Origin: Syntrophales bacterium
GTDB taxonomy: Bacteria > Desulfobacterota > Syntrophia > Syntrophales > UBA2185
Assembly: GCA_049512055.1 (NCBI GenBank)
Contig: JBEKXK010000004.1
Location: 5,065-69,064 of the forward strand
DNA: 64,000 nucleotides
Direction: 5' to 3'
Positions 13,613 to 60,051 of the stretch are shown here, in pieces. Positions within the stretch are counted from its first letter, which is position 1. Every line of letters starts with the position of its first letter. The notes beneath the pieces were generated by a model that worked only from the letters and a program-made list of their open reading frames with translations, was not told where the DNA came from and did no database searches. The position numbers were made by a program, and so were the translations under genes.

Positions 13613-13616
13613 TTAG

Positions 13617-14844: not shown

Positions 14845-14846
14845 CC

Positions 14847-22263: not shown

Positions 22264-22276
22264 GGTTGCTCCGGGA

Positions 22277-23035: not shown

Positions 23036-23048
23036 ACGGTTCGCCCCA

Positions 23049-24000: not shown

Positions 24001-24001
24001 A

Positions 24002-42920: not shown

Positions 42921-42942
42921 CCGTCAGCCGTAATGAGATTAA

Positions 42943-44865
42943 TTATTTCTTATTATGCATTGCAAGGGCATTTTTCAGGTTGTCGCTGGCCTGCTTGAAG
43001 TCAGGGTTAATTCGCAGGGCTGCACGGTAACTGTTGATGGCTCCGTCAATCTCGCCCCGCGAAAGCAAGGCGCTTCCCAGATTGTTATGGGCATCTGCCA
43101 AATCAGGCTTGAGTCTGATGGCCTCCCGAAAGTGGGTGATAGCTTCGTCTTCTTTACCGAGGAGGGCCAAGACATAACCGAGGTTATTCTGATATTCTGC
43201 AACGCGAGGTCTGATTCTTACAGCCTCCTTGAGGTGGGTCACAGCTTCCACCATTTTCCCCTGGTGCGCCAAAGCATTACCCAGGTTATAATGTCCATCG
43301 GCGTGGTATGGATTGATCCTCAAGGTTTCCTCATAGTCGGCGATAGCCCCCCCGTAATCACCGAGCTTGGCCTTTGCGTTTCCACGATTTTCGTAAGCTA
43401 TAAAAAAGCGAGGGTTGATCTCAATTGCTCTATTGTAATACCTTAAAGCCTCAGATGCATTCCCTGCATCGGCGATTGCCTTCCCGTAAGCATTCAACGG
43501 TCTCGGTTTATTAGGAGATTTCCTCAGACAGTCGGCCCACAGGGTATATTCACTCTTCCAGACCCTATTGCGCTCATAGGTCAATACTGCGTTTGTCAAG
43601 ATAAGTAAAACCAGCGCTCCTACCGATACCTGCCTGTATCGATCCCATATAAAATAAAAGACCACGCCTGTCAGTACAAGAAAGAAACCAATACTTGGCA
43701 GGTACGTCCGATGTTCAAATATAACATTCTGGGAAATCGGGATGATACTTGATTCTACGGAGAGTGTTAAGAAAAACCAGAATATACCAAAGGAAATCAG
43801 CCGATACCTGCGGAAAAGGAATATTGCCGCGACAAATATTCCGACCAGGGATAACAGGCCAAAAAGCGTATGCCCTTCAAAAAGGCTGTGGGAGATCGGA
43901 CAGTCATAATCCAGATTCTGATTTACAGGCAGAATGAATAGCCTGATATATGTTAGTATGACGCTGAACTGCGTGAGGAGATATTCCCGTGCCGTTATGA
44001 GAGAATCATAACCCTGGTTGAGAAGGGGGGGCACGGGAGTAAATATCCCGAAAGAGAAATTAAGGAAAAAAAGGGCAACGAAAATCACGAGGATAATGAC
44101 AGGAATCTGGATGCCCCTGTCTCTTAAATCGATCTTCCACGTATCGGTTTTTATAAAACTGAACTCGTACAAAACAAGGGCAAAGGGTAACGTAAAGACG
44201 ATCTCCTTGGTCAGCATCCCCAATATAGCGCACAGTACAGAGCCTGCGTAATAAAAGTAAACCCGTGTATCTTTATTACCTTCCCGAACTCTGCCCTTGA
44301 CAAACAGCGCTAATGATAACAGATAAAACAGCGTGGCCAATGAAGCCAGCCGTTGCACTATATACGTTACCGACTGCGTAGCCAGCGGATGCGATACGAA
44401 GAGCAGTGCGGTAAACAAAGCCATTGCTCCTTTATGCCTGCTTATCGGCTGAGCCTTCATTACAGGCGTCGCCATTGTCAGGATCACCAGCCACCATACC
44501 AATATGGCATTGACAACGTGTATCCCCAAATTAACGAGGTGGTATCCCCAGACATCGAGTTTGTGAAAATGATAATCCAGGGCAAATGATAGATTCCCTA
44601 TGGGACGGCTGGGGATAAAACCCCACCAGGCTTTCACATTGGAAAGATTCCGTATGGTGATATTTTCCTCAATGTTCGGTGTATCGTCAAAATGAAAAGA
44701 GCAATCAAACGAATTGGAATAAGCTATTACACCCACAAGGCATATAAGTATTATAGATATTAGGCTCCATGGGAACTTTCTATTTTTCCCCTGTTCTTTT
44801 TTGCCATCAGGGATTGGTTTTTGTTTTTTTTTCTTAGGGGTATTCAATTTCTGGATGCGTGCCAC
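42943..44865 (-). CDS. TMTC-like GT-C membrane glycosyltransferase with C-terminal TPR domain (paralogue 2, divergent)
   Basis: 640 aa with a GTG start after GGGAGATAAGG. Contains FHFDDTPNI and HPLATQSVTYIVQRLASLA, with six or more C-terminal TPRs. Confidence 0.72.
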   Translation of the reverse strand: MARIQKLNTPKKKKQKPIPDGKKEQGKNRKFPWSLISIILICLVGVIAYSNSFDCSFHFDDTPNIEENITIRNLSNVKAWWGFIPSRPIGNLSFALDYHFHKLDVWGYHLVNLGIHVVNAILVWWLVILTMATPVMKAQPISRHKGAMALFTALLFVSHPLATQSVTYIVQRLASLATLFYLLSLALFVKGRVREGNKDTRVYFYYAGSVLCAILGMLTKEIVFTLPFALVLYEFSFIKTDTWKIDLRDRGIQIPVIILVIFVALFFLNFSFGIFTPVPPLLNQGYDSLITAREYLLTQFSVILTYIRLFILPVNQNLDYDCPISHSLFEGHTLFGLLSLVGIFVAAIFLFRRYRLISFGIFWFFLTLSVESSIIPISQNVIFEHRTYLPSIGFFLVLTGVVFYFIWDRYRQVSVGALVLLILTNAVLTYERNRVWKSEYTLWADCLRKSPNKPRPLNAYGKAIADAGNASEALRYYNRAIEINPRFFIAYENRGNAKAKLGDYGGAIADYEETLRINPYHADGHYNLGNALAHQGKMVEAVTHLKEAVRIRPRVAEYQNNLGYVLALLGKEDEAITHFREAIRLKPDLADAHNNLGSALLSRGEIDGAINSYRAALRINPDFKQASDNLKNALAMHNKK

Positions 44866-44938
44866 ACCTTATCTCCCATGTTCTTCTTTCACAGTAGAGA
44901 GAGCATAAATAAATAAGATATGATTGAACGCGCAAAGC

Positions 44939-46768
44939 CTATCGGTTTCTTTTCTGTTGAGCAAGGGCATTCTTCAGATTCTCCCGCGCCATAGTATAAT
45001 CCGTCTTGAGACGCAGGGCCTGTCGATAACTGTCAATGGCTTCATCAATCTTTCCCCGAAAAAGCAAGGCGTTTCCCAGATTGTTATATGCCTTGGCATA
45101 GTCCGGTTTGATGCGAACGCATTCCCGAAATTGATAGATAGCTTCATCGAGCTTCCGCTGTGATGCCAGAAGAGTACCGAGGTTGTAGTGTGCTGCTGCA
45201 TGGCTGGGATTGATTCCAATGGCCTTGAAGAAATTGGGTATGGCTTCATCTGGCCTTCCCAGCTTGGTCAAGGCAAGACCTATATTATTATATGCATCTG
45301 CCAGACCCGGGTCAATCCGCAATGCTTCGGCATAGTGAGCGATGGCTTCATCAAGCCTGCCCTGATCCTCCAGGGCGTTGCCGAGGTTATTTTGCATTAT
45401 GGGATTATTAGTTGTCACTTCCACTGCATGCGTAAAGAGAACAACGCTGTCCTTCCAGTATTTCACCTGCTTCCAGGTAACGAACGAAAAAGTGGTTAGT
45501 GTGATGACAGCTACCGTTGCAAGTGCAGCATTCCGATGTCGCCACTTTTTTGAAAGCTCAGGTACACCCCAGGCAACCATAATCGAAACGCCTACAAGGG
45601 GCACATAGGTATAGCGGTCCGCCATGGCCTGGACACCCACCTGGACGAGGCCGATCACCGGAACCATTGTCCCCAAGTACCACAGCCATCCTGTCGCAAG
45701 ATAGGGGTAGCGCTTCACGTTCCGGATAATCAAAAAGGTTGTAATGCCAAGAAAGAAGACCGCAGCAACAACCTCCCAGGTTGGCAACATGCCGTGGTAC
45801 GGATAAAGAACCGCAAGATCAGCGGGCCAGATCATCTTCCCAATGTAACGGCAGTAAGAGACAAGGGCATTGGCAATGCGTGTTGACAGGGGAAAGCTTT
45901 GCAGAGAACGCATGGCCCCGCCTTCCTGCTGGGCCATGTATGTAACTATACTCGATGCCAGAGAAAGAACAAAAAATGGAACCTTTTCCAGGATAATGTG
46001 ACCGATAGCAGGCTGTTGCCGGTTCTGCTTCTCAGGCTTATTTACATACTCTGCTTTTATTGCACTCTTCCGGCGTTCCTTTTTTTTGCTGTTCCTTTTC
46101 AGGGGTCTTTCAGATCGCGTGTTCTCATTTACTAACGATTTCCCTATCGTCAACCGGCGGAGGGGCCAGTAATCAAGAAGGAGCAGGACAAAGGGAAGCG
46201 TAACCAGCATGGGTTTGGCCATGAGGCCCAGGGCAAAAAAGAAAAGAGCAAGCAGATACCTCTTTAGCCCCCGCCTTTCAACATAGAAAACATAAGCCCC
46301 CATGGTGAGCATCCAGAAGAATGTAGAAAGGACGTCCTTGCGCTCGGTAACCCAGGCAACAGACTCCACATGAAGGGGGTGAATGGCGAAGACAGCCGCC
46401 ACAAAGGCACTTTGCCAGAGGCCCTTCGTCATGCGGTGAAGAATGAGAAAGAGCAAGAGTGTATTGGCGATGTGAAAGAAGAGATTGACTAAATGATGAA
46501 AACCCGGCCTCAATCCGAACAACTGACAGTCCAGCATGTGAGAAAGCCAGGTCAGGGGGTGCCAGTTACTCACATAGAAGGTTGTAAAAGCCCATGCAAC
46601 GTTCCCGGATGTCAGACCCGTCTGTACGTGATGATTTTCCGTTATGTATTCGTTGTCATCGAAACCAACGAAGTCGTAATCCTTCACCTGCAAGAAAACG
46701 GACAGCATAACAACCGTTAGAAAGAGGCATATGAGTAATGCCTGCCGTTTGTCATCTAGTTTATTCAT
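44939..46768 (-). CDS. TMTC-like GT-C membrane glycosyltransferase with C-terminal TPR domain (paralogue 3)
   Basis: The start is trimmed to the ATG at 46768, which overlaps the hflX stop by 1 nt (TGATG). Contains FVGFDDNEY and HPLHVESVAWVTERKDVLS. It shares long identical blocks with paralogue 1. Confidence 0.75.
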   Translation of the reverse strand: MNKLDDKRQALLICLFLTVVMLSVFLQVKDYDFVGFDDNEYITENHHVQTGLTSGNVAWAFTTFYVSNWHPLTWLSHMLDCQLFGLRPGFHHLVNLFFHIANTLLLFLILHRMTKGLWQSAFVAAVFAIHPLHVESVAWVTERKDVLSTFFWMLTMGAYVFYVERRGLKRYLLALFFFALGLMAKPMLVTLPFVLLLLDYWPLRRLTIGKSLVNENTRSERPLKRNSKKKERRKSAIKAEYVNKPEKQNRQQPAIGHIILEKVPFFVLSLASSIVTYMAQQEGGAMRSLQSFPLSTRIANALVSYCRYIGKMIWPADLAVLYPYHGMLPTWEVVAAVFFLGITTFLIIRNVKRYPYLATGWLWYLGTMVPVIGLVQVGVQAMADRYTYVPLVGVSIMVAWGVPELSKKWRHRNAALATVAVITLTTFSFVTWKQVKYWKDSVVLFTHAVEVTTNNPIMQNNLGNALEDQGRLDEAIAHYAEALRIDPGLADAYNNIGLALTKLGRPDEAIPNFFKAIGINPSHAAAHYNLGTLLASQRKLDEAIYQFRECVRIKPDYAKAYNNLGNALLFRGKIDEAIDSYRQALRLKTDYTMARENLKNALAQQKRNR

Positions 46769-48495
46769 CACGAGGGAAACGACCTTGATTCGATAGGATT
46801 CATTCTCGTCCGGGTCTGATTGATCATCGCTTCCATCCTTTCCGCAAGAGGAGGCAGGGTTTCGGGATTGAGGGCTGAGATGGCTGTGGCGCAAAACCTC
46901 TGACAGAGGTTTTGCAGGATCACTTTATCGGAGAAGCGATCTGCCTTATTGAAGACACGGAGAGTGGGCTTTCCGATTATTGCAAGCTCCTCCAGGATTT
47001 TCTCAACTGCCGCCATATGGCTTTCAAAATTCGGATTACTTATGTCAACTACATGGAGAAGGACATCGGCTTCGTGGAGTTCATCAAGGGTCGCCCGAAA
47101 GGCAGCAAAGAGATCCCGGGGAAGATCCCGGATAAATCCTACCGTATCGGTGATGATCGCTTCCGTATCCCGCGGAAAGCGGAGCCGCGAACTCTTGGGA
47201 TCAAGGGTCGCAAACAGGCGGTCCTCCGTAAAGACACTGCTTTTTGTGAGCGTATTCAGGAGGGTTGATTTTCCGGCATTCGTGTAGCCGACGATGGAGA
47301 TTATGGGAAGACCCATTTTCCCCCGTTTAACGCGGCGTTGTTGCCTTGCCCTTTCGATCTCGTGCAGTTCACGTTCGAGGCGGCGGATTCGATCCCTCAC
47401 ACGGCGGCGGTTTATCTCAAGCTTAGTCTCCCCCGGCCCCCTGCCTCCGATGCCTCCCGTGAGCCTCGACATGGCCGTATTTTTTGTCGCCAGCCTGGGG
47501 AGGAGATACTTTAACTGTGCCAGCTCCACCTGGAGCTTGCCCTCTCGGCTATGGGCGCGCCGGGCGAAGATATCAAGAATGATCTGGGTGCGGTCGACGA
47601 CCTTCATCTCCGTAAAATCCGTAATGGATCTCAGCTGTGCCGGTTGCAGTTCATGGTCGAAGATGAGGAGATTGGCTCCTATCTGCATGGCCCTGATGAC
47701 GAGCTCCGACATTCTCCCCCTGCCGAGGACAAATCGAGGGTCTATCTGATCCCGATACTGGATGATGCTGTCGAAAACCTCAACCCCGCAGGATCGGGCG
47801 AGCTCCTTCAGTTCATCTAAGGAGCTTCGGCTGTCGGCAAGGGGACGCGTTTCCACACGGATCAGTATGGCGCGGTCTGCAGAATCCACCTTGCGAGTTT
47901 TCTGTTTTTTTGTAAATTCGCTCTCCAGGGCCTGGATGAAGGCAAGAAAATTGAGGTGCATCTCCGACGGACGCACCTTCTCCATAATAAGCCAGAACCT
48001 GCCATCAGGGTTTTCCGGAATCAGGTGGGCAGTGTGGGCATAACCGGGAAGGCCATCCTCTCCCGTCTCAACGGCTGAGATGAGATCGAGGCGGAGAAGG
48101 GCCAGGTCGGTGAGGTCGTCAGTGGTGAGTCCTTCACCGTTTAAATGGGTGTGGATTAAGCGGAGGCCCTTGAAGCGTATGGAAGAAGAACGGAAGCCGT
48201 CAAGGCCGGGAATCATGATGTCCTTGGGCGAGCCGGCAATGACGTAGGCGATCTCGCCTCTGCGGCTGATCAAGATTCCTATCTGACGGTTGATTTCCCG
48301 TGAAATGGATGTGAGTTGTCTCGCCAGTTCGTGGGTAATGACGCGTTCCGGCGGTACCTTCCTCCGGTAGAGTTGACCGATCCTCCTTATCTGTTCTGCG
48401 CCCAGGCCGGTCAGGCTGCCATAGACTTTATTGATTTCCTGCCCCCTTGCTTTCGGCCTGACGCGAGGCCATCCTCCTCGCCAGACGTTCCTCAT
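46768..48495 (-). CDS. hflX: GTPase HflX (long form with N-terminal extension)
   Basis: HflX N-domain (LQVELAQLKYLLPRL) and G motifs GYTNAGKSTLLN, DTVGF and NKAD. About 190 extra N-terminal residues. The exact start is uncertain because it overlaps the zinc-ribbon gene by 68 nt. Confidence 0.88.
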   Translation of the reverse strand: MRNVWRGGWPRVRPKARGQEINKVYGSLTGLGAEQIRRIGQLYRRKVPPERVITHELARQLTSISREINRQIGILISRRGEIAYVIAGSPKDIMIPGLDGFRSSSIRFKGLRLIHTHLNGEGLTTDDLTDLALLRLDLISAVETGEDGLPGYAHTAHLIPENPDGRFWLIMEKVRPSEMHLNFLAFIQALESEFTKKQKTRKVDSADRAILIRVETRPLADSRSSLDELKELARSCGVEVFDSIIQYRDQIDPRFVLGRGRMSELVIRAMQIGANLLIFDHELQPAQLRSITDFTEMKVVDRTQIILDIFARRAHSREGKLQVELAQLKYLLPRLATKNTAMSRLTGGIGGRGPGETKLEINRRRVRDRIRRLERELHEIERARQQRRVKRGKMGLPIISIVGYTNAGKSTLLNTLTKSSVFTEDRLFATLDPKSSRLRFPRDTEAIITDTVGFIRDLPRDLFAAFRATLDELHEADVLLHVVDISNPNFESHMAAVEKILEELAIIGKPTLRVFNKADRFSDKVILQNLCQRFCATAISALNPETLPPLAERMEAMINQTRTRMNPIESRSFPS

Positions 48496-48785: not shown

Positions 48786-50150
48786 TTAGAAGGTGAGGGT
48801 CAGTTTTTGAGTTATGAGATAGTCGTTGTCGATAGAGTATGATGAAACGGAGCCCTTCCAGTAGTCACCCGCCCACAGGTAGCCAAAGCCGACCATGTAG
48901 GTGAGGTTGTCATAGATCTTGTAGGTTGCCGTCACGTCAAGCTCACTACCGTAGTTATGGGAAATCTGATTCGCAACTGCGTCCTTGTCCGCAGTGGCAA
49001 TGGCGTAGGCCGCCTTGATATCCAGCTTTGGTAGAGGCTTCACACCAACAAAAATCTGTGCAAATTGGGCATTGGTAATGCCTGCAATCACAGACGTAGG
49101 AAGAGGCCCCATACCACCATTCCACCTGGACAAGTCAAAGTTCCAGAGCATCAGGCAGGGGTTAAAATCGGTCATTCCGGGCCATCCTGAGTTGTCTTTA
49201 TCAGTTGCATTAATATCGGTACCCTCTACGTAGACCAGGTTGATACCGGCATACATGGGTGCGAAATCAACGGTGGCCGAGATATAGGCACTAAGTCCGT
49301 CCTTAGTCTGATCTGTGCCGTTGCTGGCCGTGTCATACTTTTTTGTTTTACCTGTTAGGTAAAACGCTTCACCCTCGATATAGACAGGACCTATCTGGGC
49401 CTTAAAGTAGGGGTCAAAGATCTCCCACAGTCTCTTGTAGCCCGCATCTGTCGCAGGGTTCGGGCTAGTCCCGGCATTTCTGCTATCGACGAGGTGTTTA
49501 TAGAGCAAACCGGCATTCCCCTTGCCCCAGTCGTAGATAAAGGCCAGGACGTACGCATCCTGCTGGTTATCCACCTGGTAGAGGGAGTTGCCTATGTTGC
49601 CGGCAGGACCGGCAGAGCTATAGTACTGAGTGGCTTCTGTCTTGTCATAGAGAGCGATAAGTGTCCATGGACCGATAACGTAATCGTACCTGACCCTGGG
49701 GCCATAGGCGTAGTCGCCGTAGTCACCGAATGTGGTGCCGAACTGACCTTGCCGCTGGTAACCGGCTCTGAAGAGGCCTCCAAAGAGATTAGCGCTCACA
49801 TACACCTGGTTGAAATGGATATTTTCATCTTCATCATTATTCGGTAAGTTGAAGATGTTAGAGACATTCGCGGGGGTAACTGTAGAACTCCTTGAAGCGC
49901 CCCATATCTTATCCATAATGTCGGCCTGGACCGTCAGCGACAGGCCTTCCTGGACCTTGAAGTCTGTCTGCAGCCTCAGTCTCTGCCATGTATTCATCAG
50001 GGACGCTCCCTGATCCACCAGAGCACGGTTGTTTTCATAGTAACCCTGGATGACGTAAGACCCGCTGAACTTCACATCCGTCGCACATACGGGCATTGTG
50101 AAGGCCATGATCAGGGCAACTGATAGTAAAACTATCCAAAGCTTCTTCAT
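48786..50150 (-). CDS. outer-membrane beta-barrel porin-like protein
   Basis: Signal peptide MKKLWIVLLSVALIMAFTMPVCA, alternating Tyr/Gly-rich amphipathic strands and a C-terminal ...LTLTF. The start is trimmed to the ATG at 50150 after AGGAGGAAACA. Confidence 0.65.
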   Translation of the reverse strand: MKKLWIVLLSVALIMAFTMPVCATDVKFSGSYVIQGYYENNRALVDQGASLMNTWQRLRLQTDFKVQEGLSLTVQADIMDKIWGASRSSTVTPANVSNIFNLPNNDEDENIHFNQVYVSANLFGGLFRAGYQRQGQFGTTFGDYGDYAYGPRVRYDYVIGPWTLIALYDKTEATQYYSSAGPAGNIGNSLYQVDNQQDAYVLAFIYDWGKGNAGLLYKHLVDSRNAGTSPNPATDAGYKRLWEIFDPYFKAQIGPVYIEGEAFYLTGKTKKYDTASNGTDQTKDGLSAYISATVDFAPMYAGINLVYVEGTDINATDKDNSGWPGMTDFNPCLMLWNFDLSRWNGGMGPLPTSVIAGITNAQFAQIFVGVKPLPKLDIKAAYAIATADKDAVANQISHNYGSELDVTATYKIYDNLTYMVGFGYLWAGDYWKGSVSSYSIDNDYLITQKLTLTF

Positions 50151-50748
50151 TGTTTCCTCCTGTTTTCGTTTTTTAAATTGATCTTTCCGGGCATGTTCCT
50201 GAAAGACCATTCTCATTAGAACCACTTTTAAAACTTCGGCCTCCAGAATTACCTAAAGGCCGCTTAAACCCCTTCTTCACCTCCTTTCATAGAGATTTAC
50301 GGCGAAAATATGTACCACCGTCAATATTCGTTGTCAAGCCTTTTTCGCCGCTGTTTTACAAAAGGGCCTCGCAAAGAGCCGCCCTTCTTTTTGCTTATTC
50401 GACCAGCAATAACCGTACCACGGCTGTGCATCAGGAATACCATAAAAGAATGGGCAACGGTAACATATTGTAAATAAGGGAGCTAATGCCTGATAATGAT
50501 TGCTGGCGAAGAAAAAAAATAAGGCACCTACAATAGCCCTAAAAATCAACAATGAATATCATTGCACACGGAAATAATCCTGGAGACACGAGGCTAAGCT
50601 GAGGGGTAATCTTACAATATTGTCTCCTATCAAATACTTACAGGATTTATGAATTCACTAGAACCGATAAATGGGAAATCTTTCAAACCGTAACATACGC
50701 TCCACATGTGTAGCAAAAAAAACACACTCAAGCAGGCAGCGGGATTTT

Positions 50749-51729
50749 TTACAACAGGGATTGATGATCTTTTACCATATCTGTATCCATTTTAATGTTG
50801 CGCCCCTGCGTTGTCAGATAGTTGCCGATCATCAGGCCATTTGCACCAGCGAGCATGGCCCATGATTGATAATCTCTGAGAGTCACTTCTCTCCCACCGC
50901 AGATGAGAATATTCTTGTCAGGATTGACGAATCTGAAAACGGCTATGCACTTCAATGCCTCCAAGGGCTTGAGCAAGGGTCTCTTTTCCATTCCGGTGCC
51001 CGCAATGGGATTGAGAAAATTTATCGGTATACCGTCAACGTCGAGTTCCTTCAGAGTAAAGGCTAATTCCGCGCGCTGCTCCCAGGTTTCACCCAGTCCC
51101 AAAATGCCTCCTGAACAAACCTTCATCCCTGCCGCCTTGGCAAGCTTAACTGTAATGATGTCCTCTTCGTAGTCATGGGTCGTGCATACCTTATCGAAGA
51201 AACTCCGTGCTGTTTCCAGATTATGATGGTAAACGACAATCCCCCCTTCCGCGAGCCTGCGTGCTTTGGCCTCATTGAGCATTCCCAGGGAGGCGCAGAG
51301 AGTGAGGTCCGTCTTTCCGGCAATGGCAGCCGCGCTACGGCAGATGATGTCCAGTTCCTCGTCTGTCAGCATATAGCCGCTTGTTACCATGGAATATCTT
51401 GTGGCCCCTCCCCTCTCTAACTCAATTGCGCTTTTCACAATTTCCTCTTCATCCAATAAGGGATACGTCATGATCTCCGTTTTATGATGGGACGATTGGG
51501 CGCAGAAAGCGCAATCTTCGGAGCAAAAACCCGATTTGGCATTGATGATGGAACACAGAATAGTTTCTTTTACCTCTCGCATCTTTTTGATCTTGTGAGC
51601 ACAGAATAGTAAGTCCATGGTATCCTTTTCCGGAAGATGAACAAGTTCACAGGCATCTTCGTAAGAAACGGCATCACCGCCATCGTTTATAATTTTTTCA
51701 GTGAGCTCGATAATTTTCTTATTGAACAT
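50749..51729 (-). CDS. bioB: biotin synthase
   Basis: Radical-SAM CSEDCAFCAQS plus biotin synthase C-terminal motifs. The start is trimmed to MFNKKIIELTEK (ATG at 51729). Confidence 0.93.
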   Translation of the reverse strand: MFNKKIIELTEKIINDGGDAVSYEDACELVHLPEKDTMDLLFCAHKIKKMREVKETILCSIINAKSGFCSEDCAFCAQSSHHKTEIMTYPLLDEEEIVKSAIELERGGATRYSMVTSGYMLTDEELDIICRSAAAIAGKTDLTLCASLGMLNEAKARRLAEGGIVVYHHNLETARSFFDKVCTTHDYEEDIITVKLAKAAGMKVCSGGILGLGETWEQRAELAFTLKELDVDGIPINFLNPIAGTGMEKRPLLKPLEALKCIAVFRFVNPDKNILICGGREVTLRDYQSWAMLAGANGLMIGNYLTTQGRNIKMDTDMVKDHQSLL

Positions 51730-51827
51730 ATTCTTCTCCTTTTTTGCGGGATGTCCATTTCTCGGGAAATAATCTGCCTCTTGGCGGTAAGAAAGAGTAT
51801 TTGCCCATATCAGAGGGCGGAACATAA

Positions 51828-51855
51828 GTCAACCTTATTTATATTTTGGGTTGAC
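51828..51855. promoter_or_regulatory. BirA operator (bioO) in the bioB / birA-bioA divergent region
   Basis: Perfect inverted repeat GTCAACC (51828-51834), a 14-nt AT-rich spacer, and GGTTGAC (51849-51855). This matches the TGTWAACC-N14/15-GGTTWACA class of BirA sites. Each half-site overlaps an outward-facing TTGAC(A/T) hexamer. Confidence 0.7.
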
Positions 51856-51885
51856 AATCAATTACGAGGATGTTATGAGCCGCGC

Positions 51886-52872
51886 ATGTCCACAAAGCAG
51901 CAGTTACTCATATATTTGAAAGATGGTAGGGGAACCTGGGTCTCCGGCGAATTCCTCGCCCATAAAATGGCGGTTTCCCGGTCGGCTGTATGGAAACATA
52001 TCGGCACTTTAAAGGAAGATGGTTATGTGATCGAATCGTCGCGAAAAAAAGGGTATCTCCTTCGCCAGACATCCGATTTACTTCTTGCAGATGAAATCCG
52101 AGAAGGGCTGAACACGAATGTTTTCGGTAAGGGACAGATTATTTATTTCAGGGAAACGGACTCAACTAATGTGAGGGCTAAGTATCTGGCAGGCGACGGC
52201 GCTCCTGAGGGAACGGTGGTTGTTGCGGAGAAGCAGACACAGGGACGAGGAAGAAGGGGAAGAAGCTGGTTTTCTCCCCCTGGTGAGGGCATCTACACCT
52301 CTATCATCCTAAGGCCACCCATTCCTCCAAATGAGGCGCCTAAGCTGACTTTATTGGCATCGGTGGCGGTAGCTGAGGCTTTGCTTTCTCTTACATCATT
52401 AAAGGTCAACATTAAATGGCCCAACGACATACTGATCAAAGGCAGGAAGGTCGCAGGCATTCTCACGGAAATCAGCACGGAAATGGACAGAATCGATTAT
52501 GTGGTCATAGGTGTTGGTGTAAATGTGAATACGCCGCGAAAAGGCCTTCCTCCTGATGTCGCACACACGGCAACATCTGTTTTCATGGAGGCAGGCAGGG
52601 CATTCCCCAGGATCGCCCTCCTTCGCGCCTATCTGGAGTGGCTCGAAATATATTACGAAACATTCAAGACGAAGGGTTTTGATCCAATATTGAATCGGTG
52701 GAAGCATCTTGCTGACATAATCGGGAGGCGGATAAGTGTTGACCTCATGGGCAGTGTACGCATGGGTAAGGTCTTGGATGTAGACAAAGACGGTTCTCTG
52801 ATCCTCCAGGATCGCAAGGGGACGATTGAGAGGATAATTTCCGGGGACGTAACTTTGTTATCTCAGGAGTAG
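51886..52872 (+). CDS. birA: bifunctional biotin-protein ligase / biotin operon repressor
   Basis: N-terminal winged HTH (GEFLAHKMAVSRSAVWKHIGTLKEDGYVI) and a ligase core (QTQGRGRRGRSW; KWPNDI). The start is trimmed to the ATG at 51886. Confidence 0.9.
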   Translation: MSTKQQLLIYLKDGRGTWVSGEFLAHKMAVSRSAVWKHIGTLKEDGYVIESSRKKGYLLRQTSDLLLADEIREGLNTNVFGKGQIIYFRETDSTNVRAKYLAGDGAPEGTVVVAEKQTQGRGRRGRSWFSPPGEGIYTSIILRPPIPPNEAPKLTLLASVAVAEALLSLTSLKVNIKWPNDILIKGRKVAGILTEISTEMDRIDYVVIGVGVNVNTPRKGLPPDVAHTATSVFMEAGRAFPRIALLRAYLEWLEIYYETFKTKGFDPILNRWKHLADIIGRRISVDLMGSVRMGKVLDVDKDGSLILQDRKGTIERIISGDVTLLSQE

Positions 52873-52996: not shown

Positions 52997-54364
52997 ATGA
53001 CCGGCAAAGACAGAAAAGAACTGGAGATCGCTGATAAAAAGTATATTTGGCATCCCTTTACCCAGATGCGGGGTTATGAAAAGGAAACGCCGCTCATCAT
53101 TGAGGAAGCGGAAGGGTGCCTGTTAAGAGATATGGAGGGTAACAGTTATATTGATGGTGTTTCTTCACTCTGGACCAATGTTCACGGCCACAGGAAGAAG
53201 AGACTTGACGATGCCCTGAAAGAGCAGCTTGGCAAGATTGCCCACTCGACCCTGCTGGGACTTTCCAATACACCGGCAATCAGACTGGCGAAGAAATTAA
53301 TCGCAATTGCCCCGGCGGGATTGACGAAGGTATTTTATTCCGACAATGGTTCCACAGCCAATGAAATAGCGCTTAAGATGGCCTTCCAGTACCATCAGCA
53401 ATGCCCTTCGGGAAAGCACAGCAAGAAGAAATTCATTCGCCTGTCCAATGCCTATCATGGAGATACGATAGGCTCCGTGAGTGTGGGAGGGATTGATCTG
53501 TTCCATTCCATGTACAGGGACCTGCTCTTCCCGTCTTTCAAGGCGGAAGCACCCTACTGTTACCGCTGCGCATTCGGAAAGTCCCATCCCGCCTGCGGGC
53601 TCGCATGCCTGGCGCACGTGGAGGACATCATGAAGGCCCATAACCATGAGATTGCCGCGCTCATGATAGAGCCCTTGGTCCAGGGAGCCGGCGGGATATT
53701 GGTGCAGCCACCAGGATACCTGAAAAGGGTAAGAGAATTATGCACGCGCTACAACATCTTCATGATCGCCGATGAGGTGGCGGTCGGCTTCGGCAAGACG
53801 GGAAAAATGTTTGCCTGTGAACATGAAGGGGTGGTGCCGGACATCATGGCCCTGGCAAAGGGAATAACGGGAGGGTATCTCCCGCTTGCAGCAACCCTCG
53901 TGACGGAGGAAATCTATGAAGGATTTCTCGGGGAGTTCGAGGAGTTCAAAACATTCTTTCATGGACACACTTTTACGGGAAACCCCCTGGCATGCGCGGT
54001 TGCCATCGCCAACCTTAAGGTCTTCGAAGAGGAGCGCACCCTCGACAAACTCAAAGCAAAAATTGCGCACCTCGCAGAGAGGCTAAAACCATTTGCCTCT
54101 CTCAGTCACGTCGGAGAGGTGCGCCAGTGCGGCATCATGGTGGGTATAGAGCTCGTTTACAATCGAAATACAAAGCAGCCCTTTCCCCCGGAGAAGAGAA
54201 CAGGTCATCGGGTCATTATGGAGGCAAGAAAGAGAGGCGTGATTATCCGCCCTTTAGGGGATGTCATTGTACTGATGCCGCCCTTGAGCATTTCTAAAAA
54301 GGAAATAGATCTTCTCTGTCAGACTGTCTACGATTCGATTCAAATCGTCACAGAAAGAAAGTGA
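52997..54364 (+). CDS. bioA: adenosylmethionine-8-amino-7-oxononanoate aminotransferase
   Basis: 455 aa class-III aminotransferase with [25 protein letters not shown] and the PLP lysine context [12 protein letters not shown]. Confidence 0.93.
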
Positions 54365-54373
54365 GGTCTCGAA

Positions 54374-54700
54374 ATGGCCGGTGATGAAGAAGCATCAGAG
54401 AGAAGCCCCGGCAATGGCCCCTGGGAGGGCGTATTTTATTTTCATCCGGATGACGGCATTTACCAGGATCATTTCCCCGGGTACCCGGTTGTCCCCGGAA
54501 GCCTGATAGTGCGTGCATTTTTGGAAGCGGCAACAGACGCCGGCTTCTTGCCGGATTATCTTGCAATAGAAAACTTCAGGTTCAGAGAATTTCTCTCACC
54601 CGGCCATTACGCATTTCGTATCGAACTGGCGGAGGACCGGCTGAAATGCCAGATTTATCGGGGAGAGAAGAAACTCGTTACGGGAGTCTTGAAAAGATGA
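54374..54700 (+). CDS. short FabZ/FabA-like hotdog-fold dehydratase homologue
   Basis: 108 aa. DHFPGYPVVPGSLIVRAFLEAA matches the FabZ HFPxxPVxPG...EAxAQ catalytic region, with the His and Glu positions retained. It lacks the usual N-terminal strand. Confidence 0.65.
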   Translation: MAGDEEASERSPGNGPWEGVFYFHPDDGIYQDHFPGYPVVPGSLIVRAFLEAATDAGFLPDYLAIENFRFREFLSPGHYAFRIELAEDRLKCQIYRGEKKLVTGVLKR

Positions 54701-55440
54701 GCCGCCATTTTTCGGGAAATCGTGCCCTCGTTCTGGGTGGCACGTGCGAGCTTGCTCTTGCTTTGGCTCACTCCATGATAGGGTCTGATCTTTTTCCCAT
54801 TCTTACTTACAGAGACGATAAGGGTCTAAACGCAATAAGAGAGTCTCTGCGGCCCTTTCACGGGAGATACGAGACTTGCTATCTGAATTTCGGTGATCAT
54901 GCTTCGCTGGATTCCATCTTCACCCAAATCGGCGATGACCTCCATTTCCTGGTAGATTTTGCCCAGGGAAATTATGAGAGTTTTGTCGCCGGAGCAGACG
55001 AGGACAGCGTTTACAATTATTTCATGGAAAACATTTCTTTTCGCGCCGCTATTCTGAAAAGGGCTGGAAGGGCGATGCTGAAGAAAAGAAGGGGGCGACT
55101 CGTTTTTATTTCTTCTGCAGCCGCGGCAAGACCCAATCCCGGCCAGGGATTTTATGCAGCCGCCAAGCTGGCTTCGGAGGCCCTCTATCGCAACATGGGA
55201 TTGGAGTTGGGAGAACGTGGTGTGACTACGGTGATTCTTCGTCCCGGTTATATCGAGGCCGGGCGGGGCAGAATTTATCTGCAAGGGCAGGATCGAAAAA
55301 TTCTTGAGATGGTGCCGATAAGAAGGGCTATTACAGGCGAAGAAATTTCCCAGACGATTCTCTTCCTTCTTTCCGACGGCGCCTCCGCCATCAACGCGAC
55401 GGAGATCTCCATGGACGGAGGTCTCACATCCGGAAAATAA
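54697..55440 (+). CDS. short-chain dehydrogenase/reductase (FabG-like ketoreductase homologue)
   Basis: Rossmann N-terminus ALVLGGTCELALAL, FISSAAA and the YAAAK (YxxxK) catalytic motif. ATGA overlap with the preceding gene. Confidence 0.8.
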   Translation: MSRHFSGNRALVLGGTCELALALAHSMIGSDLFPILTYRDDKGLNAIRESLRPFHGRYETCYLNFGDHASLDSIFTQIGDDLHFLVDFAQGNYESFVAGADEDSVYNYFMENISFRAAILKRAGRAMLKKRRGRLVFISSAAAARPNPGQGFYAAAKLASEALYRNMGLELGERGVTTVILRPGYIEAGRGRIYLQGQDRKILEMVPIRRAITGEEISQTILFLLSDGASAINATEISMDGGLTSGK

Positions 55441-55508
55441 GAGGCCGTCAAACTCTCAAGCGAAATGGAAGAAAGGTCTTGAGTAGCACAGCCGAAAGTG
55501 TAGGACAC

Positions 55509-55880
55509 ATGGATGTTTTTGCTGAATTAAAAAAAATACTGGCAGAACTACTGGACATCGAAGACAGAGAAATTACGCCGGAGACTCTTCTCATCCAGGA
55601 TTTGGGTGCTGAGTCCATTGACCTTCTGGAGCTCGCCGTAACCGTAAACAGCCGGTTTAAGATAGCCGTGAGGGATGATGAGATATTCCTGACACGCTTC
55701 AGACTCTATTCTACAGAAGCGAAGCAGGAGGGAAAGGACACCGTCCACTATATTGCCGGAAAATATCCCTTTCTTGGCGAAGACAGGATAGCAGAAATAA
55801 TGGCGCATATTAAAGAAGGTCCTCAGTTGAAGATAAAAGACCTTATCAGTTATGTGGCATACCGGTCACAGGGGGTTTAA
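55509..55880 (+). CDS. acyl carrier protein-like protein with C-terminal extension
   Basis: DLGAESIDLLEL resembles the ACP DLGxDSLD phosphopantetheine site. It has about 45 residues beyond a normal ACP. An alternative TTG start lies at 55479. Confidence 0.75.
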   Translation: MDVFAELKKILAELLDIEDREITPETLLIQDLGAESIDLLELAVTVNSRFKIAVRDDEIFLTRFRLYSTEAKQEGKDTVHYIAGKYPFLGEDRIAEIMAHIKEGPQLKIKDLISYVAYRSQGV

Positions 55881-55884
55881 CGCC

Positions 55885-56523
55885 TTGGACATAACGCCTC
55901 TGGATAAACTGATCAATCAGCGGAGGAGCATCAGGAAGTACAAACGCGAATGCCCTCCCGAAGAATGGGTAAGAAAGATGATCCTGGCAGCCATGAGGGC
56001 GCCTTCTCCCTCAAACAGCCAACCCGTGCGGTTTATCCGCATCCTGTCTCCTGAGCTTAAGGACCATCTGCTTCAGGCCATGCGCGAAGGTGAAGAACGT
56101 TTGCTGGAGGCAGTTAAGAATGCGAGCAGTTCAAAAAGATTGAGAAACTGGATTAATGCCTATCGCCGGTTCTCGGAGTTCATGTTCGATGCGCCGGTAC
56201 TTCTTGCCGTCAGCACCACTACGACATTTCTCAATCTCGCAGAAAGGCTGTTCCGCGCCAGCGCGATGGAACAAGGACAGAAGAAACACCGGGACATTGA
56301 CATTGCCGTTGGTCTGGCTCTTAAGGGATATCTCCTGAAGGGGGAGGAGCTTGGCCTCGGTTCTTGTATTCTCACAGCCCCCCTGCTCTTTATCCAGGAA
56401 CCCGAGGGAATACTTGGCTTGAAAGGGATGGAGATCAAATGCTTTGTTACAACAGGGTATCCCGATGAAGAACCGGCTTATATCAAGCAAAAAGATATCA
56501 CAGAAATCTTCAGGGAAATTTAG
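55885..56523 (+). CDS. nitroreductase-family flavoprotein
   Basis: RRSIRKYK and APSPSNSQPVRF are FMN-nitroreductase signatures. The proposed start is TTG at 55885 after AGGGGG; the ORF-track ATG at 55852 would overlap the ACP gene by 29 nt. Confidence 0.75.
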   Translation: MDITPLDKLINQRRSIRKYKRECPPEEWVRKMILAAMRAPSPSNSQPVRFIRILSPELKDHLLQAMREGEERLLEAVKNASSSKRLRNWINAYRRFSEFMFDAPVLLAVSTTTTFLNLAERLFRASAMEQGQKKHRDIDIAVGLALKGYLLKGEELGLGSCILTAPLLFIQEPEGILGLKGMEIKCFVTTGYPDEEPAYIKQKDITEIFREI

Positions 56524-57738
56524 ATGAAACGAAGGGTCGTTATCACCTCTATGGGGATTCTCTCGTCTCTGGGCCACAACCGCGGGGAGATTATAAAGAG
56601 TTTCAAAGAGGGAAACGTGAATTTCGAAAGGCCCGCATTTGACGACGAAGTCGTTGCCTCCCCCATTGGGGGCTTCAATGTCCGGGCATATACAGGCCCG
56701 TTTAAGGATGGCCGTTATCTAAACCGTGGCTCTCAGTTTGCTGTTGCCTCCGCCATCGCAGCGATAAAGGATTCAGGGTGCAAAAGAGATGATCTGGTGG
56801 AAGCAGGACTCTTTGTCGGTGCCGGTCCGAACCTCAATATCGGCTGCGAGTTCCCGGAGATCAGGAAAGGGGAAATTGACCGGGAGGACCTTCAGGCCTT
56901 GTGGATCCTGAGATTTCTGCCCAACACCGCTGCGTCTGTTATCGCAAAGCTTACAGGTATCCACGGTGAGAACCTCACAGTATGCACTGCCTGTTCAGCT
57001 TCCTTGCAGGCAATCGGAGAGGCGTTTCGCAAAATAAAAACCGGTTATCTTGATCGCGCCCTTGCCGGAGGCAGTGATTCTCGCCTGAGTCCGGGAGGGA
57101 TTCTGGCCTATAAGAAGGCAAAAGTCGTCTATTTAGGCAATAGCGAACCCGCCAAGGCAAGCAGGCCCTTCGATTGCGGGCGGAGCGGCTTTGTCCCCGG
57201 GGAAGGAGGGGCATTTTTTCTTCTGGAGGAATTTGAGAAGGCGAGAGAACGTGGGGCGCAGATATACGGCGAGATATGTGGTTACGGAAGTTCCATGGAC
57301 GCTGCCAACATGACCGCCCCGGAAGGTACCGGGAAATGGGGGAGGCTGGCCGTGCTCTCCGCTTTGCAGGAGGCAGGGATGTCTCCCTCTCAGGTTGATG
57401 TAATTTCCGCACACGGAACAGGAACCCTCCTCAATGATGAAGGAGAAGCCAACCTCATAGACGACATCTACATGGGCTGCAGCCCCCGGGTGATGGCGCT
57501 AAAGTCCTGGATAGGGCACACGGCCTCCGCCTGCGGAGCTATGGAGCTTGCCCTCTCGTTGATATGCATGCAGGAGAGTTATATCCCTGAGATCAGAAAC
57601 CTGAAAGACCCGTGCCGCGGGAAAATCAATTTTGTTCGCGATGGAGGGACTTTTTCATTTGGTACAGGCGTCATTGAGAATTTCGGGTTTGGAGGACAGA
57701 ACGGCGCCCTAATCGTAAGACGGGCTGAAGACGTGTGA
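56524..57738 (+). CDS. beta-ketoacyl-ACP synthase, FabB/FabF (Cys-His-His) type
   Basis: Active-site Cys in VCTACSASLQAIGEA and His residues in SAHGTGT and IGHTASACG. GFGGQN is near the C-terminus. The ATG directly follows the preceding stop (TAGATG). Confidence 0.9.
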   Translation: MKRRVVITSMGILSSLGHNRGEIIKSFKEGNVNFERPAFDDEVVASPIGGFNVRAYTGPFKDGRYLNRGSQFAVASAIAAIKDSGCKRDDLVEAGLFVGAGPNLNIGCEFPEIRKGEIDREDLQALWILRFLPNTAASVIAKLTGIHGENLTVCTACSASLQAIGEAFRKIKTGYLDRALAGGSDSRLSPGGILAYKKAKVVYLGNSEPAKASRPFDCGRSGFVPGEGGAFFLLEEFEKARERGAQIYGEICGYGSSMDAANMTAPEGTGKWGRLAVLSALQEAGMSPSQVDVISAHGTGTLLNDEGEANLIDDIYMGCSPRVMALKSWIGHTASACGAMELALSLICMQESYIPEIRNLKDPCRGKINFVRDGGTFSFGTGVIENFGFGGQNGALIVRRAEDV

Positions 57739-57777
57739 GAGCATTCTTGTTCCTGTGCCCTAGCAGAAGGTTATTTT

Positions 57778-58245
57778 ATGGAAGTGCATAATATGGACGC
57801 GATCATTGTCATCAATTCAGGACTCGCAGATTTCATAATGCTTGATAAAGTTCTGGAAGTGAACGCTTCCCGCATCATTGGTGCAAAATCTTTTATCGGT
57901 GTGCCGGCGTATTTGCGTCTGGAATCGCTTGCCCAGCTCGGTGCGTTTCATGTCCGTTACATAACCGGGTTTTCCCGGCATGTATTCCTTATAAAAATCG
58001 TGAGCTGTTCATTGCCTCTGAGGACAGCAATGGAGGGAGAATACGTACTGTCCGGAAACCTGGTAGGCAGCAGCGATTCATCCTTTCGCTGCTTCCTGAG
58101 AGCGGAAAACGATAAAGAAACAGCCGCGGAAGCTGAGCTTATGTACGCCGCAGTTGATTACGATCATAACTTTAAGAAGGGAATGTTACATGACCACTAC
58201 ACAAAGGTATTTTCATGTTTGCAGAGAGATTTAAGAACCGGCTGA
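57778..58245 (+). CDS. hotdog-fold (FabZ-like, catalytic His absent) protein
   Basis: FIMLDKVLEV...IIGAKSF resembles the FabZ N-terminal LLVDRVLEL...KNV. RLESLAQLGAF resembles the EAMAQ helix. GVPAY replaces the GHFP segment. Confidence 0.45.
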   Translation: MEVHNMDAIIVINSGLADFIMLDKVLEVNASRIIGAKSFIGVPAYLRLESLAQLGAFHVRYITGFSRHVFLIKIVSCSLPLRTAMEGEYVLSGNLVGSSDSSFRCFLRAENDKETAAEAELMYAAVDYDHNFKKGMLHDHYTKVFSCLQRDLRTG

Positions 58246-59360
58246 TGCTGCAGCAGCAAACGGGCCTGTACCGCGAACCGCCGGAAGTGAAAAGCAGAGA
58301 CGGGAAATACCTCAACATAGAGGGAAGGAGGGTTCTGAATTTTGCGTCCAATGACTACCTGGGGCTCGGCGTTTCCGAGGAACTGCGACAAAGGGCGGCG
58401 CGAAATTTTGGGAAGTATGGAACGTCATCTTCGTCATCGCGCCTGGTGTCAGGAAATTACTCTATAATAAACAAGGCGGAGAAAGAATACGCATCATATT
58501 TCGGTTATGGCGATGCCATATTTTTCCCCAGCGGTTACCAGGCTAATTTGGGAATTCTTTCCACCTTTCTGGAACGGGGAGATACTGTCATTTTTGACAA
58601 GCATATTCATGCAAGCTCTGTAAAGGGAATGACGATAAGCGGGGCAAGTTTTCTGGGGTACAACCATAATTCCATGCCCCACCTTGAAAAGAGACTGGAA
58701 ATGTACACGAGGGAGCAGGTTGCCGTAATAACGGAGTCTCTCTTCAGTATGGATGGTGATCTTCTGGATGTAACTGGTCTGTGCAGATTAAAGGAGCGTT
58801 GCCGTTTCTTGACAATCGTCGACGAAGCCCACGCCTTTGGTGCCATAGGTTCCGGAGGGCGCGGCATCGCAGGTCCCGTGGCTGATATTGCTGTCGGAAC
58901 CTTTGGCAAGGCTTTCGGCTTTTTTGGCGCCTTTGTCCTTCTTCCTGCGGGATTCAAGGAATACCTCTTTAACTTTTCCTCTCCTCTCATTTATACCACG
59001 ACCCTTCCGGAAGCCCATGCCGCAACGGCAATAGACATCCTGGAAATTATAGAGCGCAGTGAAGACAAGAGAAAACGCTTGAGAGATACCAGTCAATCTC
59101 TGAAGAAAAGCTTGCGCCTTGAGGGATTTCGGGTTACCGGTGATGCTCACATCTTGGCCCTGGAGATCGGTGACGAGGCTAAGGCCGTCAATATGGCCCG
59201 GAAGCTTCTCCAGAGGAATATATTTGTCCTGCCAGCCCGCTATCCTACAGTGCCTCTGCACCGCTCAATACTGAGAATAGGCGTCACGGCTCTTCACGAA
59301 GAGGAGGATATTACATCATTCATTGACCATGTAAAGGAAGCAAGTGGAGAGCTCGAATAA
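58215..59360 (+). CDS. bioF: 8-amino-7-oxononanoate synthase
   Basis: NFASNDYLGL, DEAHAFG and the PLP lysine context GTFGKAFG. Confidence 0.9.
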   Translation: MFAERFKNRLMLQQQTGLYREPPEVKSRDGKYLNIEGRRVLNFASNDYLGLGVSEELRQRAARNFGKYGTSSSSSRLVSGNYSIINKAEKEYASYFGYGDAIFFPSGYQANLGILSTFLERGDTVIFDKHIHASSVKGMTISGASFLGYNHNSMPHLEKRLEMYTREQVAVITESLFSMDGDLLDVTGLCRLKERCRFLTIVDEAHAFGAIGSGGRGIAGPVADIAVGTFGKAFGFFGAFVLLPAGFKEYLFNFSSPLIYTTTLPEAHAATAIDILEIIERSEDKRKRLRDTSQSLKKSLRLEGFRVTGDAHILALEIGDEAKAVNMARKLLQRNIFVLPARYPTVPLHRSILRIGVTALHEEEDITSFIDHVKEASGELE

Positions 59361-60051
59361 GAAAATTCAAAACCTATTTGTTGTGGGAACGGATACAGGG
59401 GTGGGAAAGACTGTACTTGCCCTTCTCCTGATGCAATTCTTTTTTGCTAAGGGATATAGCCCTTTTTATCTCAAGCCCGTGCAGACAGGATGCAGGGATG
59501 CAAACGACGCTGACAGTGATGCAAAATTCATTTACAGGCATGTCGAATCTTTGCATGGCAGACAACCGGCCGAATCCGTGATCTACTGCTTCAGGAATGC
59601 GAAGGCACCTCTCTATGCCGCGAGCGATGAAGGAAAATTAATAGACCTATCAAAGATAGAGAGAGTCGTATCTCAGAAGTCTGAGGCCCACTGCCCCGTA
59701 ATACTCGAAGGTGCAGGCGGTGTTCTGGTCCCCGTAGCGGGGAAGAAACTCATAGTTGACATTATCAGCTTAGTAAATGGAACTCCCGTCATAGCCGCAA
59801 GGGCAGGATTAGGGACAATTAACCACACTCTCCTTACGATCGAGGCCATTGAGAATAGAGGACTCAAACCTCTCGGAATTGTCTTCATAGATGCCGGAGA
59901 AAAAGAGACGCCTCCCGAGATGATTAAGGAAAACAAATCCGCCATTGAAGAGACTTCCGGCATAAGAGTGGCCGGGGTTATCGGCAGAATTCATGATTTT
60001 TCACAACCACCGCATGATTGCTACAAACCATTGGCAAGAATGTTTGGTTGA
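59344..60051 (+). CDS. bioD: dethiobiotin synthetase
   Basis: P-loop VVGTDTGVGKTV and EGAGG. A GTG start overlaps the bioF end. Confidence 0.88.
   Translation: MESSNKKIQNLFVVGTDTGVGKTVLALLLMQFFFAKGYSPFYLKPVQTGCRDANDADSDAKFIYRHVESLHGRQPAESVIYCFRNAKAPLYAASDEGKLIDLSKIERVVSQKSEAHCPVILEGAGGVLVPVAGKKLIVDIISLVNGTPVIAARAGLGTINHTLLTIEAIENRGLKPLGIVFIDAGEKETPPEMIKENKSAIEETSGIRVAGVIGRIHDFSQPPHDCYKPLARMFG

Follow-up and report, generated by a model that had tools for sequence, protein, structure and literature searches.

The 64,000-nucleotide stretch of Syntrophales DNA analysed here (contig JBEKXK010000004.1, positions 5,065 to 69,064 of the forward strand; hereafter the window) carries six tightly packed genes, P1 to P6, between bioA and bioF of a biotin operon, and these probably encode a biotin-regulated, private elongation system that makes pimeloyl-carrier protein for BioF without the methyl-ester disguise of the BioC/BioH route. 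[quoted passage not shown] The evidence comprises gene content, catalytic residues, folds, synteny with bio genes and a predicted BirA operator, together with published genetics in Desulfovibrio; from these we infer which primer is used, how many cycles are run and what each protein does. All six genes proposed in a first-pass annotation of the sequence proved to be open reading frames (ORFs) on the + strand, and their boundaries stand in general, with the exception of two start codons (that of P3, moved to 55509, and that of P4, possibly TTG 55885). The six genes are:

54374..54700, + strand: P1, a short FabZ-like hotdog protein of 108 amino acids (Pfam FabA, 1.4e-6; profile against PDB FabZ, 1.7e-6)
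54697..55440, + strand: P2, a FabG-like short-chain dehydrogenase/reductase (SDR), candidate 3-oxoacyl-carrier reductase (adh_short_C2, 7e-25)
55509..55880, + strand: P3, a private acyl carrier protein (ACP) of 123 amino acids (PP-binding, 6e-9; AcpP models below cutoff)
55852..56523, + strand: P4, a nitroreductase-fold flavin mononucleotide (FMN) protein, candidate enoyl-carrier reductase (PF00881, 6e-25)
56524..57738, + strand: P5, a FabF/FabB-type ketosynthase (N and C ketoacyl-synt domains; TIGR03150, 1e-81)
57778..58245, + strand: P6, a second FabZ-fold hotdog protein (AlphaFold2 and Foldseek)

Five genes resembling those of fatty acid synthase (FAS) were described in BirA-regulated bio operons of two Desulfovibrio species, and a new pimeloyl pathway was proposed for them (Rodionov et al., 2004; PMC545781); this is the comparative-genomic work to which the first-pass annotation had alluded. 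Its further statement that the system is functionally undescribed was too strong, since genetics by random barcode transposon-site sequencing (RB-TnSeq) in Desulfovibrio vulgaris Hildenborough (DvH) exist and the same route has been proposed from them (Trotter et al., 2023; PMC10102598). In DvH, nine clustered genes (DVU2558-DVU2565 plus DORF42491) were specifically required without biotin, including two FabZ-like genes (DVU2560 and the previously unannotated DORF42491), the FabG-like DVU2561, the ACP DVU2562 and the FabF-like DVU2563, and the only gene outside the cluster needed without biotin was the unlinked nitroreductase DVU1220 (PMC10102598). The DvH genome lacks bioC and bioH, and Trotter et al. 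proposed a methyl-ester-free route from malonyl-ACP to pimeloyl-ACP, with the nitroreductase as a possible enoyl reductase; a nitroreductase-like gene was also reported within the clusters of Syntrophobacter fumaroxidans and Desulfobacter vibrioformis (PMC10102598). As the first-pass annotation had held, no biochemical characterisation of the pathway was found in the literature searched, and a 2025 paper on BioE (PMC12704756) and a 2024 biotin review both cover the BioC-BioH, BioI-BioW, BioZ and BioE routes with no mention of the Desulfovibrio-type one.

The window is another lineage (Syntrophales) of this known, biochemically uncharacterised pathway, of which the nitroreductase-containing variant has already been published; it mainly adds that lineage and a set of testable residue-level predictions, and no new system. 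One of the loci related to it (L046) comes from Halodesulfovibrio spirochaetisodalis, which is aligned with DvH in Fig. S3 of Trotter et al. (PMC10102598); this locus has the same gene order as the window, with 49% identity in the ketosynthase and 27% in P6, so that the window's cluster belongs to the published family. Shared with the extended bio cluster of DvH are two FabZ-like proteins, the FabG-like SDR, the private ACP and the FabF-like ketosynthase, as well as the position of the module among bioA, bioF, bioD and bioB under (here predicted) BirA control, and the window's gene order matches that of Halodesulfovibrio (L046, L049, L051 and L052). The host, in contrast, is Syntrophales/Syntrophaceae-like (best ketosynthase identity to any species representative, 88%), birA is the first gene of the operon and shares its strand rather than being divergent as in DvH, and the nitroreductase gene is part of the cluster; DvH relies on the unlinked DVU1220, a protein with an added 4Fe-4S domain. 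To the published picture we add a FabZ catalytic dyad split between P1 and P6, an insert of about 45 residues in the carrier, a four-residue loop insertion in the ketosynthase and family-specific basic residues in the same enzyme.

A ketosynthase scan with one genome per species yielded 54 related loci from Syntrophales/Syntrophaceae metagenome-assembled genomes (MAGs; up to 88% ketosynthase identity), Desulfobacterales and Halodesulfovibrio (49%), below which identity dropped abruptly to ordinary Ruminococcus FabF at about 36%. By tblastn with all eleven window proteins, the order P1-P2-P3-(P4)-P5-P6-bioF-bioD was found in every locus long enough to tell, with a single exception for the bio genes (L042); the insert is thus syntenic with bio genes in related genomes. 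Just upstream of the operon's first gene, the BirA palindrome was present in 34 of the 54 loci compared with none of 26 control fabF loci, and in two of them (L030 and L048) the operator stood directly in front of P1. The synteny with bioF-bioD, the distribution of the operator and the DvH genetics all support the earlier suggestion of a mini-FAS with its own carrier feeding BioF. P4 lay between the ACP and ketosynthase genes in 41 of the 54 loci. Clustering of the ORFs across all 54 recovered the 11 known genes and, apart from these, only antisense shadow ORFs, and no conserved acyltransferase, phosphopantetheinyl transferase, bioC, bioH or bioW partner appeared among the clusters.

Three of these loci departed from the usual pattern. 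In a Desulfobacterales MAG (L042:3703-7646) the six genes stand alone, with rnf subunit genes upstream and rluD-like, carD, H+-pyrophosphatase, pth and L25 genes downstream, and with no bioF, bioA or bioD within 6 kb, from which it follows that the six form a unit in their own right. At L029:4434-5348, P1 is followed after about 265 nucleotides by the ACP gene, the P2 SDR not being where it usually lies. A contig binned as 'Methanosarcinaceae archaeon' (L032, JBQVLY010000058.1) carries a bacterial module with 62% ketosynthase identity; it probably reflects contamination of the bin and not a copy in an archaeon.

Around the six genes the window holds the remaining biotin genes and the operator:

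50749..51729, - strand: bioB, biotin synthase (Radical_SAM and BATS domains; orthologue alignment)
51826..51857, no strand assigned: BirA operator-like palindrome aaGTCAACC-N14-GGTTGACaa, between the divergent bioB and birA
51886..52872, + strand: birA, bifunctional biotin ligase/repressor with helix-turn-helix (HTH), ligase and C-terminal domains (TIGR00121, 4.5e-69; HTH_11, 3.5e-16)
52997..54364, + strand: bioA (TIGR00508, 1.7e-168, above cutoff)
58215..59360, + strand: bioF, 8-amino-7-oxononanoate synthase (TIGR00858, 1.3e-98, 330 bits against a 426-bit cutoff)
59344..60051, + strand: bioD, dethiobiotin synthase (TIGR00347, 7.7e-38, above cutoff)

Although it falls below the cutoff, TIGR00858 was the top-scoring model for bioF, ahead of glycine C-acetyltransferase. 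The palindrome core GTCAACC-N14-GGTTGAC (51828-51855) occurs only once in the window and in none of 100 shuffles, and the form of the predicted operator agrees with the BirA sites that Rodionov et al. list for delta-proteobacteria (PMC545781); this unique and widely kept palindrome bears out the earlier placement of the operon downstream of a BirA operator. Its right arm overlaps a -35-like hexamer, TTGACA (region 51851-51886), with TATGAG 17 nucleotides past the hexamer and the birA ATG about 7 nucleotides beyond TATGAG, so that a birA-bio transcript may be almost leaderless. On the opposite strand, the longest bioB ORF (50749-51825, - strand, 358 amino acids) comes within 3 nucleotides of the operator; orthologues place the likely bioB start at MFNKKIIE (51729) instead, which leaves a leader of about 100 nucleotides.

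The junctions within the operon were exact on re-reading of the sequence: an ATGA overlap at 54697-54700, TAGATG at 56521-56526 and a 31-nucleotide overlap between P6 and bioF. No convincing terminator was seen in the 124 nucleotides between birA and bioA. A single transcript is plausible, and is put no higher because promoter and terminator consensus scans performed no better than on shuffles. The base composition of the insert equals that of its flanks, and this lack of any GC anomaly gives no sign of recent transfer.

Profile hidden Markov models were run on all six proteins, and P1 to P5 matched the families to which they had first been assigned, P6 being left without a match. P2 has the SDR catalytic residues Ser-Tyr-Lys (YAAAK) and a diverged Gly-rich motif; its best NCBIfam matches are FabG models, at about 88-89 bits against cutoffs of 297-332 (TIGR01830: 297.75), and judged by these scores it is an SDR, yet probably not the housekeeping FabG. 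The start of the carrier P3 was placed at 55509 by comparison with orthologues, which puts Ser36 within the motif DLGAESID. This protein has 123 residues in all lineages, about 45 of which form a conserved insert that separates helix III from the last helix, and its AlphaFold2 model consists of six helices (predicted local distance difference test, pLDDT, 75). A Foldseek search with the model returned ordinary ACPs only (E > 0.1) and no solved ACP with an insert of this kind.

P4 begins at ATG 55852 or at TTG 55885, the latter being the start used by its orthologues. It scores 88.7 bits against PF00881 (gathering threshold 23.5) and carries the RRSxR FMN-binding motif (QRRSIRKY); among curated families it comes closest to the FbiB C-terminal domain (1.6e-12) and BluB, and its relatives in the PDB are 3gfa (8e-14), BluB-like proteins, IYD and FbiB. 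The C-terminal domain of FbiB reduces the C=C bond adjoining the carboxylate in dehydro-F420-0. A role of P4 as enoyl reductase, suggested by its family and position, is the least certain step of the pathway.

P5 has Cys157, His297, His332 and Lys327 as catalytic residues and reaches 274.5 bits against the fabF equivalog TIGR03150 (cutoff 493.75); it is predicted to work like FabF but is not the housekeeping enzyme. The FabH-type fold with the Cys-His-Asn triad of BioZ was not found in P5, which matches FabF/FabB models, and the earlier description of an elongating FabB/F-type enzyme with a Cys-His-His triad, rather than a KAS III/BioZ type, agrees with both the triad (Cys157-His297-His332) and the domain matches. 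When 49 ketosynthases of the module were compared with 26 FabF sequences, the former were distinguished by four additional residues, PNL(D/N), in the loop with FabF Ile108, by an always basic residue at position 130 (Arg/Lys; Met/Ser in FabF) and by Tyr196, Lys198 and Ala199 in place of FabF Phe, Asn and Met, with Trp127, Trp329 and Gly69 as further features.

The two hotdog proteins each retain one half of the FabZ catalytic dyad. P1 carries the motif DHFPGYPVVPG, and its catalytic His33 (in HFPxxPVVPG) is invariant among 23 orthologues; position 47, aligned with the FabZ Glu, is His, Arg, Gln, Ser, Asn, Lys or Trp in these and never Glu. Against the FabZ model TIGR01750, P1 scores 26.5 bits (cutoff 155) and P6 has no match. 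P6 indeed had no Pfam or NCBIfam match at all, and a Pfam scan of 23 of its orthologues at E ≤ 1 gave only two weak FabA matches (E 0.18). Its identification as a second hotdog protein was nevertheless upheld by structure prediction, the AlphaFold2 model built from a homologue alignment being a hotdog (pLDDT 79) whose top 48 Foldseek matches in the PDB were all FabZ (E about 1e-6, template modelling score 0.6-0.7). Its central helix contains the motif E49-x-x-A-Q, with Glu49 present in 100% and Gln53 in 99% of 135 representatives of 50%-identity clusters, and the position equivalent to the FabZ His is Gly or Ala. Arg60, His58 and His68 are near-invariant as well and are candidates for binding the omega-carboxylate. 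With 224 clusters among 1.84 billion representatives, P6 belongs to a small family, whose members are annotated only as hypothetical proteins.

FabZ active sites sit at the dimer interface, with the His from one subunit and the Glu from the other. P1 and P6 always co-occur in the related loci, both counterparts are required in DvH, and neither protein has His and Glu in one polypeptide, P1 offering only the His and P6 only the Glu; the simplest reading would be a heterodimer in which one site is composite and active and the other dead. The hotdog fold is shared with the FabZ homodimer/hexamer, but P1 and P6 are separate, very divergent gene products with one catalytic residue each, P1 being truncated to 108 amino acids and P6 having an extra C-terminal helix. 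A parallel to the arrangement proposed for P1 and P6 is found in the double-hotdog dehydratase domains of type I FAS and polyketide synthases (PKS), where likewise each half gives one catalytic residue. Three results speak against the heterodimer: the mapping of P6 residues onto FabZ uses a weak profile alignment (E 0.56) plus fold similarity, hhalign of the P1 and P6 profiles was not significant (probability 4%), and no P1-P6 fusion occurred among 356 retrieved proteins. As P1 and P6 could not be aligned directly, FabZ served as the intermediary for the His/Glu mapping.

In the pathway that we propose, housekeeping AcpS and FabD would phosphopantetheinylate P3 and load it with malonate, and P5 would condense a free-carboxylate malonyl primer with malonyl-P3 to 3-oxoglutaryl-P3. 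P2 would then reduce the keto group, the P1-P6 heterodimer would dehydrate the 3-hydroxy intermediate at a composite FabZ-type site formed by His33 (P1) and Glu49 (P6), and P4 would reduce the enoyl thioester, a step that may fall to an unlinked homologue or to a housekeeping enoyl reductase where P4 is absent. A second cycle would give pimeloyl-P3, from which BioF, BioA, BioD and BioB would make biotin. In BioZ organisms, housekeeping FAS II enzymes process 3-oxopimeloyl-ACP with its free carboxylate; because FAS II already handles this intermediate, a private set of ketoreductase, dehydratase and enoyl reductase is best explained if a C3-to-C5 cycle is also needed. A bolder version, to which we give somewhat less than an even chance, is that this would be the first FAS-type elongation of an unprotected dicarboxylate on its own carrier, with a nitroreductase-fold FMN enoyl-carrier reductase (a class beside FabI/L/V/K) and a split-site heterodimeric FabZ, and with Arg60, His58 and His68 of P6 and Arg/Lys130 and Lys198 of the ketosynthase binding the omega-carboxylate and setting the C7 length.

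The presumed carbon logic resembles that of the BioC-BioH route of Escherichia coli, in which malonyl, glutaryl and pimeloyl thioesters likewise follow one another through two FAS-type cycles before BioF. However, BioC-BioH masks malonyl-ACP as a methyl ester and uses the housekeeping FAS II, whereas the scanned genes of the window include neither methyltransferase nor esterase and the module brings a private ketosynthase, ketoreductase, dehydratase and carrier plus a candidate enoyl reductase, the intermediates presumably keeping a free carboxylate. In the BioZ route of alpha-proteobacteria (a KAS III acting on glutaryl-CoA and malonyl-ACP), as here, a dedicated ketosynthase commits a dicarboxylate to pimeloyl-ACP, but BioZ is of the Cys-His-Asn FabH type and P5 of the Cys-His-His FabF type, and BioZ depends on the housekeeping ACP, FabG, FabZ and FabI, whereas the module has its own set.

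Other routes to pimelate were sought by a Pfam scan of the likely genes of at least 150 amino acids (38 in positions 1-50800, plus the bio region); the unscanned ORFs of the window overlap scanned genes in other frames, and acs and etfB, downstream of the bio region, were recognised by eye from their translations. Among the scanned genes of the 64-kb window there was no methyltransferase, alpha/beta-hydrolase, BioW, P450, KAS III or ferritin-like protein. The first-pass statement that BioC-, BioH-, BioW-, BioI- and BioZ-type genes are missing holds for these genes, although its list had omitted the BioE route; for the BioI-BioW and BioE routes, neither the P450 BioI nor BioW nor the ferritin-like diiron oxygenase BioE was among them. 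BioE needs O2 (PMC12704756) and is therefore unlikely to suit an anaerobic Syntrophales-type lineage.

Several points weigh against the proposed pathway. Free-carboxylate 3-oxoglutaryl and glutaconyl thioesters are prone to decarboxylation, which makes the chemistry demanding, and the module encodes no acyltransferase or phosphopantetheinyl transferase. The literature searched held no biochemical evidence for the primer, the intermediates or the product, and the absence of bioC, bioH, bioW, bioZ and bioE applies to the 64-kb window only. P4 is absent from nine loci (L046, L049, L051, L052, L022, L024, L028, L041 and L048), which include all four from Halodesulfovibrio and some from Desulfobacterales and in which the ACP and ketosynthase genes abut; its absence in Halodesulfovibrio matches the situation in D. 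vulgaris, whose required nitroreductase DVU1220 is unlinked. Finally, according to Trotter et al., only a distant relationship links the required DVU1220 to the nitroreductases encoded within the clusters of Syntrophobacter and Desulfobacter (PMC10102598), and it is to the latter group that we infer P4 to belong.

The absence of P4 from nine loci, including all four of Halodesulfovibrio, also favours a variant of the pathway in which the enoyl step is carried out by a housekeeping FabI, FabK or FabV and P4 is an accessory protein, serving another redox step or an oxygen- or flavin-related protection; we know of no nitroreductase-fold enoyl-ACP reductase. Trotter et al. leave both options open (PMC10102598). 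We nonetheless consider this variant the less likely one, as P4 lies between the ACP and ketosynthase genes in 41 of the 54 loci with overlapping or abutting junctions, enoyl reduction is the sole elongation activity for which the module has no other candidate, and in DvH, which has no in-cluster copy, an unlinked nitroreductase is precisely the one non-cluster gene needed without biotin. An unrelated short acyl or polyketide product, with the six genes as mere neighbours of the bio genes, is very improbable and largely refuted: the solitary module of L042, with neither bioF nor bioA within 6 kb, would fit such a view, but the module adjoins bioF-bioD in every other sufficiently long locus, its overlap with bioF is translationally coupled, P1 comes straight after the BirA operator in L030 and L048, and the DvH homologues show a biotin-specific fitness phenotype.

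The number of cycles invites a further alternative, since the module has only one ketosynthase and nothing in the sequence fixes how often it acts. If the module ran through one cycle only, starting at C5, glutaryl-CoA or glutaryl-carrier would be condensed with malonyl-P3 to 3-oxopimeloyl-P3, which is the logic of BioZ executed by a FabF-type enzyme. Syntrophales make glutaryl-CoA and pimeloyl-CoA in their benzoate and cyclohexane-carboxylate metabolism; the window comes from a Syntrophales-like organism, and genes for an acyl-CoA dehydrogenase, acs and etf lie nearby. The module is also present in Desulfovibrionaceae, however, for which we know of no glutaryl-CoA source, and it contains no acyltransferase to shift glutaryl from CoA to the carrier. 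BioZ organisms, moreover, need no private ketoreductase, dehydratase or enoyl reductase for the C7 cycle, so that the full private set would be superfluous, and the ketosynthase is of the Cys-His-His rather than the CoA-primed Cys-His-Asn type, all of which makes a single cycle improbable. If instead the two-cycle elongation on P3 is true, FAS-type enzymes would handle free-carboxylate C3-C7 intermediates without a methyl-ester disguise, and their range would grow by a new fold for enoyl reduction and a dehydratase with a split site. Recognising the module would improve predictions of vitamin auxotrophy in anaerobic communities.

The wider window includes infB, truB, pnp, pilMNOPQ, hflX and genes for a lipoate ligase, a 2-oxoacid:ferredoxin oxidoreductase and tetratricopeptide repeat (TPR) proteins. 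Directly beside bioB lies a 479-amino-acid protein (48786-50225, - strand) with a signal-peptide-like N terminus and no Pfam match, which is beta-rich, ends in Phe and is a possible outer-membrane porin. Genes for three large TPR-repeat paralogues (575, 640 and 651 amino acids) follow one another at 41193-46894 (- strand) beside hflX; the N-terminal halves of the proteins have no Pfam assignment. The pilMNOPQ cluster occupies 11940-16649, and directly downstream of a PilY1-like protein of 1168 amino acids, on the same strand, four consecutive ORFs of 157-264 amino acids with no Pfam match (21790-24018, - strand) are probably minor pilins. A homocysteine-synthesis gene of the HcyBio family (9950-11128, + strand) and an LplA/B-type lipoate ligase (27763-28608, + strand), both unrelated to the biotin module, belong to cofactor and amino-acid pathways typical of anaerobes.

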